Made by a program: the position numbers and the translations under genes. Of a stretch of 30,675 nt of DNA, positions 4,771 to 18,071 are shown in pieces (within the stretch, counting starts at the first letter, position 1; every line of letters begins with the position of its first letter). The notes under the pieces are model-generated. The model did no database searches, had not been told where the DNA came from, and saw nothing but the letters and a program-made list of their open reading frames with translations. This DNA is from a virus (taxonomy: Duplodnaviria; Heunggongvirae; Uroviricota; Caudoviricetes): IMG/VR virus record IMGVR_UViG_2721755724_000001; one strand, written 5' to 3'.

Positions 4771-4827
4771 AAAACGGCGGCAGAGCAGTCACGGAGTAAA
4801 ACTGATACCGCCAAACGTCACCAGAAA
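4771..4827 (-). ncRNA. dicF: DicF small RNA (ftsZ-targeting) with intrinsic terminator hairpin
   Basis: Minus-strand sequence UUUCUGGUGACGUUUGGCGGUAUCAGUUUUACUCCGUGACUGCUCUGCCGCC followed by GUUUUU matches DicF as recalled; GGCGG...CCGCC stem plus U-run. Confidence 0.85.
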
Positions 4828-13661: not shown

Positions 13662-14084
13662 CCTCGCGCATACAACCGGGCAGCGATGTGATTGTCTGCG
13701 CTGAAATGGACGAACAGTGGGGCTACGTAGGTGCTAAATCACGTCAGCGCTGGCTGTTTTACGCGTATGACAGGATACGGAGGACGGTTGTGGCGCACGT
13801 CTTCGGTGAACGCACTCTGGCCACACTGGAGCGTCTTCTGAGCCTGCTGTCGGCCCTTTGACGTGGTGATATGGATGACGGATGGCTGGCCGCTGTATGA
13901 ATCCCGCCTGAAGGGAAAGCTGCACGTAATCAGCAAGCGATATACGCAGCGAATTGAGCGGCATAACCTGAATCTGAGGCAGCACCTGGCACGGCTGGGA
14001 CGGAAGTCGCTGTCGTTCTCAAAATCGGTGGAGCTGCATGACAAAGTCATCGGGCATTATCTGAACATAAAACACTATCAATAA
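13580..14084 (+). pseudogene. insB: IS1 insB, frameshifted
   Basis: InsB-homologous sequence is split into two frames around 13855-13865 (...LSLLSAL* then [15 protein letters not shown]...), consistent with a 1-bp insertion relative to canonical IS1. Confidence 0.75.
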
Positions 14085-14271
14085 GTTGGAGTCATTACCT
14101 GCACGCAGCTATTATAATATAACAGATTAGTTTAATGATTTGTTTTTTGTGAGTTAAACACATGGTTTTATAGTTGTGATGCAATGAGATTTTCCTTATT
14201 GTTGAACTGGCGAATATTGATTTTCCACCTATACTTACCTGGTGTAACCCCAATGATATCAGGTGGATAAT

Positions 14272-14985
14272 ATGCCATACATATGTTCTATCATTTTGGT
14301 GTTGAACTCGTTTGGTGTCCGAATTGGTAAAGAAGATATTTTGTTTAAAAAAGGAAATGCTGTCCTCATTGAATACAATTTAAAAGATCTTTTTTCGTCA
14401 AATACAGATCATCTAATGATCGTAGATATTGAGGAGAAAACAGTTAATGATTTCTTTAAAAACTACACACTCTCACCTTTTTCTGTAAGAAGGTTTTATC
14501 CGTCATACTTGATAGTAGAATGTGAAGATTTTTCATTGTTAAGGAACTTGGTTGCATGCTTGAATTGTGATAGCAAAACCGTGGATGTAGTTAGAAATCA
14601 AATATCACTTGCATGTCTTGCTGTCTTATCTTCAGAGAAAATAGTGCAAAGTTTTTTGTTCGGAAGTCTTAATAGCTTAGGTTGTAAAGTTAAGGCTATT
14701 ATTCACTCGGATATCTCAGCGTCATGGAGACTTTGTGATATATCTTCAAGATTATATATGAGCGAGAGTTTGTTAAAAAGAAAATTAAAAGACGAAGGAT
14801 TATCGTTTAGTAAATTAATTCTTGAAGAACGAATGATGATGGCGCAAAGATTATTGATCTACAGTAACCATACTGTCGGCAAGGTGGCGGGAATATGCGG
14901 GTATGACAATGCATCATATTTTGTAAGTGTTTTTAGAGGATATTTTGGTGTGCCTCCGCACCAATATTTATCAAGATTTTCTTAG
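14272..14985 (+). CDS. AraC-family transcriptional regulator (AppY/Rns-like)
   Basis: About 237 aa from the ATG at 14272 (AGGTGG Shine-Dalgarno); C-terminal AraC helix-turn-helix (AGICGYDNASYFVSVFRGYFGVPPHQY); visibly AT-rich gene. Confidence 0.8.
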   Translation: MPYICSIILVLNSFGVRIGKEDILFKKGNAVLIEYNLKDLFSSNTDHLMIVDIEEKTVNDFFKNYTLSPFSVRRFYPSYLIVECEDFSLLRNLVACLNCDSKTVDVVRNQISLACLAVLSSEKIVQSFLFGSLNSLGCKVKAIIHSDISASWRLCDISSRLYMSESLLKRKLKDEGLSFSKLILEERMMMAQRLLIYSNHTVGKVAGICGYDNASYFVSVFRGYFGVPPHQYLSRFS

Positions 14986-15052
14986 AAGATATGATGTGAT
15001 GGCATTTTATAAAGTTATTTTTTGAAGTGTAAGATTATACGATATTTTTAGC

Positions 15053-15086
15053 TACGCCAGAATAATTGCTGGCGTTTTTTTTTTTG
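15053..15086 (+). terminator. Rho-independent terminator after the AraC-like gene
   Basis: CGCCAG-AATAATT-GCTGGCG hairpin followed by an 11-T run. Confidence 0.6.
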
Positions 15087-15175
15087 AATAGATGTTCGGG
15101 CCTTACGCTAATGTAACTTCTTTCCTTCTTCGAACCAAACCGTGTACACCATCCGTTATCTGCGGAGGTGAGGCT

Positions 15176-15391
15176 ATGAAATCCATGGATAAGTTAACAA
15201 CGGGCATCGCCTACAGCACCTCTGCAGGCAGTGCTGGCTACTGGTTTTTACAGTTGCTCGATAAAGTCACGCCCTCACAGTGGGCGGCAATAGGTGTATT
15301 GGGTAGTCTGGTATTTGGCATGCTGACGTATCTGACAAACCTTTATTTCAAGATTAAAGAAGACAGGCGTAAGGTTGCGAGAAGAGAGTAA
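15176..15391 (+). CDS. Holin, S21-type pinholin
   Basis: 71-aa product [60 protein letters not shown]... closely matches phage 21 S; dual-start MKSM motif; GGAGGTGAGG Shine-Dalgarno. Confidence 0.85.
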
Positions 15392-15395
15392 TCCA

Positions 15396-15947
15396 ATGAC
15401 TCAAGACTATGAACTGGTTGTGAAAGGAGTTCGCAATTTTGAGAATAAAGTGGCGGTAACTGTAGCCTTACGGGACAAAAAACACTTTGACGGTGAAATT
15501 TTTGACCTGGACATCTCGCTGGACCGTGTTGAAGGTGCCGCGCTGGAGTTTTATGAGGCAGCAGCCAGAAGGAGCATCAGACAGGTCTTCCTGGATGTTG
15601 CTGCCGGGTTATGTGAAGGGGATGAGCAGTCGCCGGAAAAGCGCCCCATAATTTTAGAGGCGCAGAATGTGTGGATAACCTACAAAGGAAAGCTACCGGG
15701 AAGAATTACTGGTTCTCTGAAGACGCCACCGACGGCATTGCGGTCAGAAAAAGATGATATTGAATCGCCCATTGAAAAACTGGAGGGCAGCGTCGCTGAT
15801 CTGAATAAAAAATTGTCGGTGCTGATTCCTTCTGAAGATGAAAAAAAACGCCGCGATGAGCAGTTTGCGGCGTTTTACGATTATTGCATTGAAGTTACTC
15901 GCAGGAATTTTGTGAAGATTTTTGAGGAGGGTAAATCTCTTCAGTAA
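15396..15947 (+). CDS. Hypothetical acidic protein (183 aa) between holin and endolysin
   Basis: ATG 5 nt after the holin stop; no transmembrane segment or lysozyme motifs evident; family not recognised. Confidence 0.5.
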   Translation: MTQDYELVVKGVRNFENKVAVTVALRDKKHFDGEIFDLDISLDRVEGAALEFYEAAARRSIRQVFLDVAAGLCEGDEQSPEKRPIILEAQNVWITYKGKLPGRITGSLKTPPTALRSEKDDIESPIEKLEGSVADLNKKLSVLIPSEDEKKRRDEQFAAFYDYCIEVTRRNFVKIFEEGKSLQ

Positions 15948-16155
15948 GCTTATTGGCGGACGCTGCAATTAATTCAGGAAGGTCCGCAAGGTCATCTGTC
16001 AGTGGATATGATGAAAAATCGGCGGCAGTTCTGTTAAGAAGCGCTTTAACTAATTCCTTTTCCTTCTCCGGCAACAAGTTGATTAGAGCTACGACTGCTT
16101 GCCTGAGTGCGATTAAATCAGCAAAAGTTTGTTTAGGTAGATTTGTGTAATCCAT
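15895..16155 (-). CDS. Hypothetical small acidic protein (86 aa), convergent with the preceding ORF
   Basis: ATG-initiated ORF with a weak Shine-Dalgarno; 3' end overlaps the 183-aa ORF by 53 bp; could be spurious. Confidence 0.3.
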   Translation of the reverse strand: MDYTNLPKQTFADLIALRQAVVALINLLPEKEKELVKALLNRTAADFSSYPLTDDLADLPELIAASANKLTEEIYPPQKSSQNSCE

Positions 16156-16268
16156 AGTCGCCTCTGTGTTTATCAGATTGACATCCTCCTCCCGCCAGTG
16201 CCCATCACTGGTGAGGTAAGATTTAACATATCCGGGGATTTGAAGCCGATAAATCCTGATAAATATCC

Positions 16269-17296
<1,028 letters not shown>

Positions 17297-17659
17297 ATTA
17301 ATATTAAATCGGATTATTTTTAGCGCTGAATGTGAAATTTAAATAAAAAGGACTCTTCCATGAGTCAAAATCCTTGAAATCTTAAGGGTAAGATAAAAGG
17401 TCATTAGACAGAATGACACGTTTTATTAATAAATAAAGCTATTGTTTCATTCGTGTGTTTTTCTTTACAAAAGTAATCCTTGCTATGGTTGGTTAATCAT
17501 GCGTTAATGGTGTTCTGGTTTGTTACAAAATTATCTGAAGCAGTCATTGTTATAATTTTATTATTTGTACCTCTTGAGATTTCCTTGTTGGTTTTTCTCT
17601 CTGATATTTTTTTTCGGACCATTCTGCCCAAGGGCTAACTTCTTCAAAAGGTAATAATG

Positions 17660-17872
17660 ATGTCTAACACAATGACTGGTTTAGTGAAATGGTTTAACCC
17701 TGAAAAAGGTTTTGGTTTCATCACGCCGAAAGATGGTAGCAAAGATGTGTTTGTCCATTTCTCAGCTATTCAGAGCAACGATTTCAAAACGTTAACTGAG
17801 AATCAGGAAGTCGAATTTGGTATTGAGAACGGACCTAAAGGCCCCGCGGCTGTTCATGTTGTGGCACTTTGA
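17660..17872 (+). CDS. cspI: Cold-shock protein, CspA family (CspI-like)
   Basis: 70-aa product [70 protein letters not shown]; preceded by a long AT-rich leader of about 350 bp. Confidence 0.85.
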
Positions 17873-18071
17873 GGTAGAAAATATTACAAACCATATTCAC
17901 TTTAGATGCCCGTGTTGCCATGGTTCTCAGTATAGAACATCATCTTTTGATGTTTCTGACAGGAATCCTTTCGGGGCAAAATGTATCTTTTGTAAATCAA
18001 TGATGATTACATTTGATAATATTTCACAATACTTAAATGTTAGCCGTCTATCGTTAGATTTAAGAAAGTGA
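17856..18071 (+). CDS. Small Cys-rich protein in the ynfN position (possible zinc ribbon)
   Basis: Frame encoding ...[41 protein letters not shown]...; start uncertain; position after cspI matches Qin gene order. Confidence 0.4.

Follow-up and report, generated by a model that had tools for sequence, protein, structure and literature searches.

In the Qin prophage of E. coli K-12, ydfR (b1555, P76160; 103 aa) is the only gene in the slot between the holin (essQ) and lysozyme (rrrQ) genes, and the end of its frame overlaps the rrrQ start. Phage-encoded proteins that bind RNase E include T4 Srd, phiKZ Dip, and T7 gp0.7. Accessory genes of prophages have been described as morons, a concept reportedly set out by Juhala, Hendrix and colleagues in 2000; lambda bor is one of these, located downstream of Rz on the opposite strand, and its product has a signal peptide/lipobox. 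Convergent units are represented by lambda cII and the OOP RNA, which overlap at their 3' ends by about 55 nt, with OOP being a non-coding RNA of the early region. K-12 YdfR binds the catalytic N-terminal half of RNase E through its first 72 residues and co-purifies with RNA, and its over-production affects the transcriptome little (PMC13232886). This binding was demonstrated with K-12 YdfR only, mainly in two-hybrid and co-purification experiments (PMC13232886).

The window, meaning the whole 30,675-nt stretch of DNA analysed here (Caudoviricetes, IMG/VR record IMGVR_UViG_2721755724_000001), contains a comparable lysis cassette (Table 1). Its holin and lysozyme are annotated essQ and rrrQ in identical genomes, and the Rz-like spanin with its embedded Rz1 corresponds to K-12 rzpQ/rzoQ. 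A sequence-only reading of this DNA had noted two convergent ORFs, which it could not assign, between the holin and a SAR endolysin, and had named ydfR as the one small gene at this position in Qin. Both ORFs are real and converge with a 3' overlap of 53 nt (15895-15947), and the flanking genes are as that reading described them, with a hydrophobic 19-residue window in the N-terminus of the lysozyme. The distance from the holin TAA (15389-15391) to ORF183, given earlier as 5 nt, is 4 nt; the value of 5 is correct when the A of the start codon is included. Relative to K-12 Qin, the window has an additional 321 nt and an antisense gene between ORF183 and the endolysin. The interval is probably composed of a ydfR gene of known family and a moron-like mobile accessory cassette, rather than serving a core lysis function, and we give this reading a probability of roughly 55%.

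Table 1. Features of the holin-endolysin interval and its flanking genes (window coordinates).
Feature	Position	Strand	Details
S21-type class II holin	15167..15391	+	PF04971, E 3.8e-34; phrog holin families; start of lysis cassette
ORF183	15396..15947	+	ATG 15396, TAA 15945-15947; 183 aa, pI 5.18
YdfR core, three strands and a helix	15396..15617 (codons 1-74)	+	84% identity to K-12 YdfR residues 1-74
Tail, C-terminal 71 codons of ORF183	15732..15947	+	homologous to the C-terminus of every partner of an ORF86 homologue
Accessory cassette, ~515 bp	15732..16245		tail-coding segment, ORF86, and ORF86 leader; missing from PhiR40_1 and K-12 Qin
Likely intrinsic terminator	15841..15876	-	10-bp stem, 12-nt loop, then U8; 18 nt past ORF86 stop; -14.6 kcal/mol, z -3.1
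ORF86	15895..16155	-	ATG 16155, TAA 15897-15895; 86 aa, pI 4.57
Putative ORF86 leader with stable stem-loop	16156..16222	-	inverted repeat 16195-16211; -23.2 kcal/mol, z -2.6
Candidate weak sigma-70 promoter of ORF86	16225..16253	-	-35 TTATCG (16253-16248), 16-nt spacer, -10 TATGTT (16230-16225)
Conserved block CCGATAAATCCTGATAAATATCC	16246..16268		abuts endolysin ATG; 91-113 nt upstream of ORF86 ATG
Lysozyme with SAR-like N-terminus	16269..16802	+	PF00959, E 2.6e-24
Rz-like spanin (DUF2514)	16799..17296	+	PF10721, E 1.9e-38
Embedded Rz1 lipoprotein ORF	~16992-17246		inside Rz-like spanin gene; LTSC lipobox

The first of the two ORFs can be assigned. The search against DUF1327/YdfR that the sequence-only reading had proposed is strongly positive for ORF183, with residues 1-112 matching model positions 1-92 of 93 of the Pfam family (E 2.6e-42; 143.4 bits vs a cutoff of 25), and the match to phrog_2091 spans the full protein (1-183). 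PGAP also labels it 'YdfR family', flagged as a truncated pseudogene; the pseudogene call seems to be an artefact of annotation, as the 183-aa frame is unbroken and was seen again in 60 of the 97 fetched loci where an ORF86 homologue was found. Hence the earlier statement that neither ORF is recognizable fails for ORF183; for ORF86 it stands in that no Pfam or NCBIfam family was matched, yet that protein belongs to phrog_2572. NCBIfam contains no family for ORF183 either, and a literature search found no functional account of DUF1327.

The ORF183 family comprises 356 homologues of 103-296 aa with many C-terminal variants. Homology between ORF183 and K-12 YdfR stops at about residue 74; through codon 112 the protein tracks a 116-aa YdfR variant, and its remaining 71 aa make up an unrelated helical tail. 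In the AF2 model, residues 5-73 form three strands and a helix, the same core as is predicted for K-12 YdfR, followed by a low-confidence stretch at 70-122 (pLDDT <50) and a helical hairpin at 123-181 (confidence is modest, with pLDDT 57 and 70 for the two models, the latter for ORF86). By sequence, ORF183 is a homologue of Qin ydfR with a different C-terminus, and it occupies the same slot between a class II holin and a lysozyme. It is acidic and soluble, as had been noted earlier, with a maximum Kyte-Doolittle value of 0.81 and no transmembrane segment. Located directly past the S21-type holin, ORF183 is read as part of the late operon. Its most likely activity, judged from homology, would be to bind host RNase E and/or RNA at a late stage of infection rather than to lyse the membrane. 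Should what holds for K-12 YdfR also hold for its homologue here, ORF183 would join Srd, Dip, and gp0.7 as a phage-encoded RNase E binder and, like Srd, would contact the catalytic N-terminal half.

The window and PhiR40_1 align with near-identity up to 15731 and resume from 16246 on, the two stretches being separated by ~55 unrelated nt, and PhiR40_1 YdfR stops 4 codons past the junction. Inserted after codon 112, the accessory cassette takes the place of the final few codons that a ydfR of the 116-aa type would have. Its G+C content is 41.4-41.7% vs 47-52% in the flanking genes. Among 5426 complete E. coli genomes 293 have the cassette, as do 8 of 50,697 phage records, and it is considered accessory because it is rare relative to the holin/endolysin backbone, which is found in 5161 E. 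coli genomes, approximately 95% of which lack the cassette. The isolated phages PhiR63_1 and 2H10 carry the same cassette at ~98% identity. The idea that the pair is common in Stx phages was rejected, as ORF86 occurs in only 8 phage records and the many Stx-phage matches consist of holin and endolysin alone. The earlier suggestion that the interval carries cargo fits these data, since the low-GC tail and ORF86 are absent from otherwise near-identical lysis cassettes and are also found beside other holin and endolysin types. No description of a tail/ORF86 cassette was found in the literature searched.

ORF86 is a real gene of a catalogued phage family, matching phrog_2572 over its full length (E 4e-53). 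Homologues of 89-93 aa with 38-55% identity occur in E. coli, metagenomes, and Salmonella, and the gene is annotated 'hypothetical protein' in the 293 E. coli genomes. The sequence-only reading would have discounted this ORF had it lacked conservation; same-length homologues and in-frame purifying selection were found instead. That ORF86 is a chance antisense ORF over a non-coding spacer or a late-strand ORF is very improbable, as six lineages, diverged to as little as 38% identity, all keep an open frame of 86-93 aa, and dN/dS for deep pairs is 0.30-0.37 in its own frame, about 1 in shifted sense frames, and 0.36-2.06 in antisense frames, each of which has 2-11 stops. The Shine-Dalgarno site, the terminator, and the full-length phrog_2572 match also argue against chance. 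In favor of it, close variants (31 haplotypes) lack a third-position excess, although their 14 variable sites (2 in first, 6 in second, and 6 in third codon positions) are uninformative; a 65-aa ORF on the plus strand (15953-16150) is open opposite ORF86 in the window; and a consensus scan did not find a strong promoter.

ORF86 is acidic, and its AF2 model has helices at residues 8-26, 30-48, and 56-74. Neither ORF183, ORF86, nor the 73-aa partner protein described below had a match in PADLOC-DB at E <= 1, a PDB sequence search returned nothing for ORF86 (E 1), and the fold searches suggested by the sequence-only reading were uninformative. Several candidate matches were rejected. DUF1823, the annotation that the PhiR12 and PhiR5 phage records carry for their ORF86 homologue, scores 12.9 bits vs a cutoff of 25 (E 0.13) and is not matched by distant homologues; this and the other sub-threshold Pfam matches, GCIP_C and CLZ, were not accepted. 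Two apparent homologues were dismissed as spurious: P0140 (975 aa), which is repeat-rich and was matched in 8 stretches, and P0142, the sequence of which is of low quality.

A Shine-Dalgarno sequence, AGAGG, is located 5 nt upstream of the ORF86 ATG. The candidate promoter falls under the threshold of the consensus promoter scan, which reported none for ORF86; six lineages conserve the positions of the candidate, with TATGTT or TATTGT. The putative leader is counted from an inferred transcription start, and its inverted repeat is kept in PhiR12_1. The CCGATAAATCCTGATAAATATCC block is also found upstream of ORF86 homologues in Salmonella loci without an adjoining endolysin, and is present in PhiR40_1 too, which is without ORF86. 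No Rfam family matched within 15396-16268. The likely terminator was missed by the terminator scan because its 12-nt loop exceeds the loop limit of 8. Its 8 core pairs persist across 7 sequences, where a single double change (G-C to A-U) was seen, a covariation not above that of shuffles, and the U-tract is poor in Salmonella and in the L086/L094 lineages. The hairpin is kept as well in locus L099, from a Stx-like prophage, where no ORF86 follows.

The DNA of this hairpin also codes for KKRRDEQFAAFY of the ORF183 tail, which raises the possibility that only ORF86 is functional and that the tail is incidental read-through into DNA antisense to the 3' end of ORF86, its motif reflecting the hairpin. 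This would explain why the most conserved motif of the tail (KKRRDEQFAAFY; QRHHENGVAF in L086/L094) coincides exactly with the hairpin, and why its sole change is a complementary pair at second codon positions, which keeps the pairing and alters both amino acids. A comparison of the window to PhiR12_1 likewise does not favor the tail frame, with dN/dS at ~0.5 in all three frames, and is non-discriminating. We nevertheless regard an incidental tail as unlikely. When the partner proteins of ORF86 homologues were aligned (stand-alone 73-aa, 144-aa, and 243-aa forms, and ORF183), dN/dS outside the overlap was 0.32 in frame vs 0.9-1.6 out of frame for the 73-aa and 144-aa partners (L087/L092 and L094/L097), and the tail frame is open over ~70 codons in all lineages. 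The tail is reached by four routes: in-frame fusion at codon 112 of a 116-aa-type YdfR, fusion after a K-12-type YdfR (the 243-aa form), a position behind a different N-terminal region (the 144-aa form), and a stand-alone 73-aa gene in Salmonella. The last has its own ATG, the A of which doubles as the final base of the Rz stop, and the motif persists in a 213-aa protein of L099 despite the lack of ORF86 at that locus. A borderline PDB sequence match of the tail to the PARP-1 BRCT region (E 0.0016) was judged compositional, arising from a charged helical segment.

Homologues of ORF86 are always convergent with a gene ending in the tail, with overlaps of 53-59 nt, and the pair occurs in three late-region contexts, beside more than one type of holin and endolysin. 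Prophages of E. coli and Salmonella share a conserved, convergent, 3'-overlapping gene pair with both frames under purifying selection. Salmonella prophages carry the pair after Rz, together with PF05449 or PF16931 holins and a GH19 endolysin; the window carries it with an S21-type holin and a SAR-like lysozyme, and the pair is not co-inherited with one holin/endolysin type. It is also dispensable, being absent from phages with the same S21/SAR-type genes.

These distributions bear on the earlier proposal that the two genes are co-expressed with lysis and regulate its timing, for instance with ORF183 and/or ORF86 modulating the holin or the SAR-like endolysin as an antiholin-like or endolysin-release factor. 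Placement between holin and endolysin, with ORF183 starting 4 nt after the holin stop, is consistent with such a role, and PMC13232886 cites a genetic screen tying ydfR to envelope integrity. Helix 1 of ORF86 (TFADLIALRQAVVALINLL) has a 19-residue Kyte-Doolittle average of 1.62, the same as the best hydrophobic window of the holin. However, the helix is amphipathic and contains D13, R18, and Q19, of which R18 is conserved and D13 nearly invariant among homologues, and it is predicted to lie within a three-helix bundle; ORF183 lacks a hydrophobic segment altogether. Co-expression with lysis is inapplicable to ORF86, which lies on the other strand from the lysis genes. Near-identical holin-endolysin cassettes in K-12 Qin, PhiR40_1, and ~95% of backbone-bearing E. 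coli do without the cassette, and the Salmonella pair lies after Rz among different lysis genes. Regulation of lysis timing finds no support in these data, and we consider it quite unlikely.

The pair may instead be a conflict module in which ORF86, made in the lysogen, and the tail protein, made late, act as a toxin/antidote, superinfection-exclusion, or anti-defence pair with the overlap enforcing exclusive expression. The strict retention of pairing and of the 53-59 nt overlap across diverged homologues in three late-region contexts is consistent with this, as is the moron-like composition. L099 adds a further point, as the same slot is occupied there by a different antisense gene, of 95 aa, that weakly matches a model of a defence candidate in PADLOC; a distant relationship between this gene and ORF86 was rejected (hhalign probability 0.1%). 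Against it, neither ORF86 nor the tail matches a PADLOC, Pfam, or NCBIfam model, fold searches gave no guidance, and the linkage may be trivial, as the ORF86 terminator lies inside tail-coding DNA. A conflict module is judged improbable. More speculatively, and with little probability attached, the cassette could be a portable lysogeny-versus-lysis toggle of a kind not described before, in which ORF86 is expressed only in the lysogen and its partner only in Q-driven late transcription. The ~380-nt antisense overlap, located immediately ahead of the endolysin gene, would then insulate the lysis genes from leaky late transcription, the two helical proteins would be antagonistic, and the YdfR-fused forms would be coupled to RNase E/RNA binding.

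Under the main reading, a ydfR gene joined to an accessory cassette, the late strand of the cassette would give ydfR an in-frame helical-hairpin tail of ~70 aa, and the opposite strand would hold ORF86 as a moron-like unit with a candidate promoter, leader, ribosome binding site, and a terminator inside the tail-coding DNA. Transcription of ORF86 would run counter to the late operon and would most plausibly take place in the lysogen, and Q-driven late transcription would pass through ORF86 and yield the tail-bearing protein. As the ORF86 mRNA would over its full length be antisense to the late transcript, immediately ahead of the endolysin gene, expression in one state should counteract that in the other. 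For ORF86 and the tail, the likeliest class of function is dispensable cargo associated with the lysogen.

The cassette resembles morons in that the ORF86 unit is present or absent at the same junction in close relatives, deviates in composition, has its own terminator, and runs against late transcription. The Salmonella ORF86 homologue sits exactly in the Rz-Nu1 interval, which is also the position of bor. Unlike Bor, ORF86 has neither a signal peptide nor a lipobox; the lysogen-active promoter expected of a moron is represented by a weak candidate only; and in every case the cassette includes a protein-coding gene on the opposite strand, the two genes overlapping at their 3' ends by 53-59 nt. 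The convergent arrangement, with ~50-60 nt of 3' overlap, resembles cII/OOP and would permit antisense and RNase III control. It differs in that both strands code for protein here and that, provided its presumed ends are right, the ORF86 mRNA would be complementary to the late transcript over its entire length (~380 nt).

The locus can be re-read with its long ORF as a YdfR-family protein, the core of which is the portion recently reported as an RNase E binder, and not as an orphan. Also defined here is a small conserved convergent gene pair that moves among late-region sites of E. coli and Salmonella lambdoid prophages. Since a Stx-like prophage has another antisense gene at the holin-endolysin junction, this junction emerges as a slot for variable cargo. 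On present evidence the cassette looks like ordinary prophage accessory cargo; if control of late-gene leakiness or phage-phage conflict proved true, it would represent a new and compact module for regulation or conflict.

The window is a Qin-like E. coli prophage. Many E. coli chromosomes match its 1.8-kb lysis region at 100% identity, and the isolated phages PhiR63_1 and 2H10 do so at about 98%. The two frames that the sequence-only reading placed between holin and endolysin, a 183-aa plus-strand frame (ORF183) and an 86-aa minus-strand frame (ORF86), lie where it had put them, converging and overlapping by 53 nt, and ORF183 starts 4 nt after the holin stop codon. It was also correct that Qin, the cryptic prophage of E. 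coli K-12, has one small gene in this slot, as K-12 Qin carries only ydfR between essQ and rrrQ. The acidic ORF183 has no hydrophobic segment over its whole length.

Features of the lysis region and other elements of the window
Feature	Position	Strand	Details
DicF antisense sRNA, full length	4775-4826	-	Rfam RF00039, 72.5 bits
IS1 InsB-like ORF fragment	13863-14084		precedes AraC-family gene
AraC-family regulator gene	14263-14985		PF12833/PF00165; between Q and holin (region 13739-15085)
Strong terminator-like hairpin (stem)	15054-15075		>10 T from 15076; 3' of AraC-family gene, just upstream of holin
S21-type holin	15167-15391	+	PF04971, E 3.8e-34; stop TAA 15389-15391
ORF183	15396-15947	+	ATG 15396; 183 codons; pI 5.18
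Hairpin 3' of ORF86	15876-15841	-	10-bp stem, 12-nt loop, then U8
ORF86	16155-15895	-	ATG 16155; 86 codons; pI 4.57
65-aa ORF opposite ORF86	15953-16150	+	probably a by-product
Weak candidate promoter	16253-16225	-	TTATCG-16-TATGTT
23-nt block	16246-16268		CCGATAAATCCTGATAAATATCC
Lysozyme, hydrophobic SAR-like N-terminus	start 16269	+	followed by Rz (DUF2514) with embedded Rz1
cspA-type thermoregulator 5' UTR	17502-17899	+	RF01766, 109 bits
Cold-shock protein gene	17657-17872		directly 3' of Rz

DicF is expected for a Qin-type prophage. Compared with strain 127 (L001, NZ_CP023377.1), the window has about 770 nt more in the gap 5' of the AraC-family gene. The thermoregulator leads into the cold-shock protein gene, which is annotated as cspI in the identical region of strain 127; in K-12 Qin, cold-shock genes flank the lysis cassette, with cspB/cspF 5' of it and cspI 3' of it. 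The K-12 ydfR cluster is mentioned as cold-induced in PMC13232886.

ORF183 had been regarded as unrecognisable, but the DUF1327/YdfR profile check was strongly positive: residues 1-112 match Pfam DUF1327 with 143 bits (cutoff 25), and phrog_2091 matches over the full length. Searching 5.8 billion protein-cluster representatives gave 356 homologues; of the 120 matches listed, those with a name are all labelled YdfR family or DUF1327. The family to which ORF183 belongs is known but poorly characterised. Its residues 1-74 are 84% identical to K-12 YdfR, beyond which the sequences part ways, and family members of 103, 112-116, 162-183, 196, 211, 268, and 296 aa differ in their C-terminal parts. 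The search matches P0067, P0106, P0045, and P0104 show a common N-domain with at least four different C-terminal modules (116, 176/183, 211, and 268/296 aa); the 296-aa form, on the late strand, takes up the entire holin-endolysin gap and is without the KKRRDE hairpin segment. In strain 127, PGAP annotates the first 112 codons only (L001 6297-6632, window 15396-15731) as an incomplete "YdfR family protein" pseudogene missing its C-terminus. The variable C-termini in the family have probably made this call an annotation artefact: the 183-aa frame is uninterrupted and turns up in numerous genomes and phages, and among the 97 fetched loci where an ORF86 homologue was found it is the partner in 60.

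A two-hybrid screen picked up K-12 YdfR, the interaction mapping to its first 72 residues; the N-terminal half of RNase E (1-598) co-purifies with Strep-tagged YdfR, the eluate is rich in DNase-resistant nucleic acid, and over-production is non-toxic and alters few transcripts (Gopel et al., 2026, PMC13232886). No functional literature on the YdfR family was found beyond this study. By homology, the ORF183 core (YdfR residues 1-74) may bind RNase E at its catalytic half, and perhaps RNA too.

Phage PhiR40_1 encodes a 116-aa YdfR without the antisense gene. In alignment, it is near-identical to the window through 15731 (codon 112) and from 16246 onward, whereas between these junctions the window has about 515 bp and PhiR40_1 about 55 unrelated nt. 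The window's block, here called the cassette, begins with the C-terminal 71 codons of ORF183 (the tail, a predicted helical hairpin) and has a GC content of 41-42% vs 47-52% in neighbouring genes. In phage PhiR12_1 the same block lies behind a divergent YdfR N-domain, which points to mosaic exchange. The cassette is found in 293 of 5426 complete E. coli genomes and in 8 of 50,697 phage records, whereas 5161 genomes match the holin/endolysin backbone. It behaves like a lambdoid moron, being present or absent between the same flanking genes, with deviating GC and a predicted terminator of its own, but is unusual in having an obligate convergent coding partner. The holin-endolysin junction is a variable slot and appears to be a cargo hotspot. 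A core role in lysis is unlikely: phages sharing the window's holin and endolysin can do without the cassette, and it also adjoins holins and endolysins of types unrelated to the window's.

Downstream of the lysis genes in strain 127 (L001 10684-13608), DUF1441 (Nu1-like), large terminase, and tail-tip genes are annotated as truncated pseudogenes, so the prophage carrying the cassette in these chromosomes is defective; PhiR63_1 and 2H10 have the same cassette inside complete phage genomes. Other cargo occupies the holin-lysozyme slot of a Stx-like prophage in E. coli ST865 (L099 2403-3591, NZ_CP077649.1): a split DUF1327 gene (75-aa fragment), a 213-aa protein starting with the tail motif KKRRDEQFAAFY, and a 95-aa antisense gene of phrog_10490, unrelated to ORF86, with a weak PADLOC match to defence candidate PDC-S51 (E 2.6e-5).

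Every ORF86 homologue with readable context converges on a gene, overlapping its last 53-59 nt, and at these loci the C-terminus of the partner product is invariably homologous to the ORF183 tail. The partner is ORF183 in the window, a 169-aa form in PhiR12_1, a 243-aa protein (K-12-type YdfR, extra region, and tail) at L095, L096, and L098, with L086 a partial contig of the same kind, and, at L094 and L097, a 144-aa protein whose N-terminal region is different and whose gene follows Q and two small genes. In Salmonella-type loci, which have holins (PF05449, PF16931) and a GH19 endolysin all unrelated to the window's, it is a stand-alone 73-aa gene between Rz and Nu1 whose first base is the last base of the Rz stop codon. 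Lambda bor occupies this position. Gene finders called the 73-aa gene in only one of four Salmonella loci (L092); among the Salmonella enterica prophages L090, L091, and L093, it is intact at 6224-6445 in L090. Overlap with the convergent gene is the likely reason it is missed, and the pair would thus be systematically under-annotated. Outside the overlap, partner dN/dS is 0.32 in frame vs 0.9-1.6 in other frames (L087/L092, L094/L097), so the tail is very probably translated; comparison of the window with PhiR12_1 does not discriminate the partner frame. The best description of the cassette is a pair of convergent genes, of which the late-strand one is fused or translationally coupled to whichever gene precedes it.

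ORF86 is a real gene. The sequence-only reading could not recognise it either, and indeed no Pfam, NCBIfam, or PADLOC family was found, but it belongs to a catalogued family, phrog_2572 (full-length match, E 4e-53), with no function assigned in that catalogue. The label "DUF1823" on homologues in some phage records is unsupported (12.9 bits, cutoff 25). The close homologues all come from E. coli, and an exhaustive HMMER search together with a profile search recovered distant ones (89-93 aa, 38-55% identity) from metagenomes and Salmonella enterica. Close variants are uninformative for coding constraint; in deep pairs, dN/dS is 0.30-0.37 for the ORF86 frame, about 1 for shifted sense frames, and 0.36-0.67 for two of the three antisense frames; stops (2-11) occur in every antisense frame. 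A Shine-Dalgarno candidate (AGAGG) lies 5 nt 5' of the ATG. The AF2 model has three helices (8-26, 30-48, and 56-74; pLDDT 70), with only generic helical matches in fold searches against PDB and BFVD. The 65-aa ORF exactly opposite most likely results from the codon composition of ORF86, its frame carrying stops in diverged homologues.

Starting 18 nt 3' of the ORF86 stop, a hairpin (-14.6 kcal/mol, z -3.1) is likely the terminator in the window. Read on the other strand, the hairpin DNA codes for the tail motif that is conserved best. Seven sequences all keep eight core pairs; L086/L094 have A-U in place of one G-C pair, owing to two complementary changes at second codon positions (RR..AA to RHH..GVA), a single event not above shuffle controls. 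Outside the E. coli lineage the U-tract is poor, and the hairpin is kept in L099, where no ORF86 follows. Constraints on both the RNA and the peptide probably underlie the hairpin's conservation. A consensus promoter scan upstream of ORF86 found none; the position of the weak candidate is conserved in six lineages, and the putative leader would fold into a stable stem-loop (-23.2 kcal/mol, z -2.6). The 23-nt block directly 5' of the endolysin ATG is also present in PhiR40_1 and accompanies ORF86 homologues even where no endolysin follows, the ATG then being replaced by ATA. Its minus strand has two direct repeats, ATTTATC(A)GG, spaced 10 nt apart, and the block could be a promoter/UP element, a regulator site, or a recombination joint.

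We propose that ORF86, as a unit of moron type, is transcribed in the direction opposite to the late operon, the lysogen being the most plausible setting, and that Q-modified late transcription would read through the hairpin and ORF86 antisense to yield the tail-bearing YdfR. The entire ORF86 mRNA would be complementary to the part of the late transcript that immediately precedes the endolysin gene, so the two expression states should oppose each other, by transcriptional interference or double-stranded RNA cleavage.
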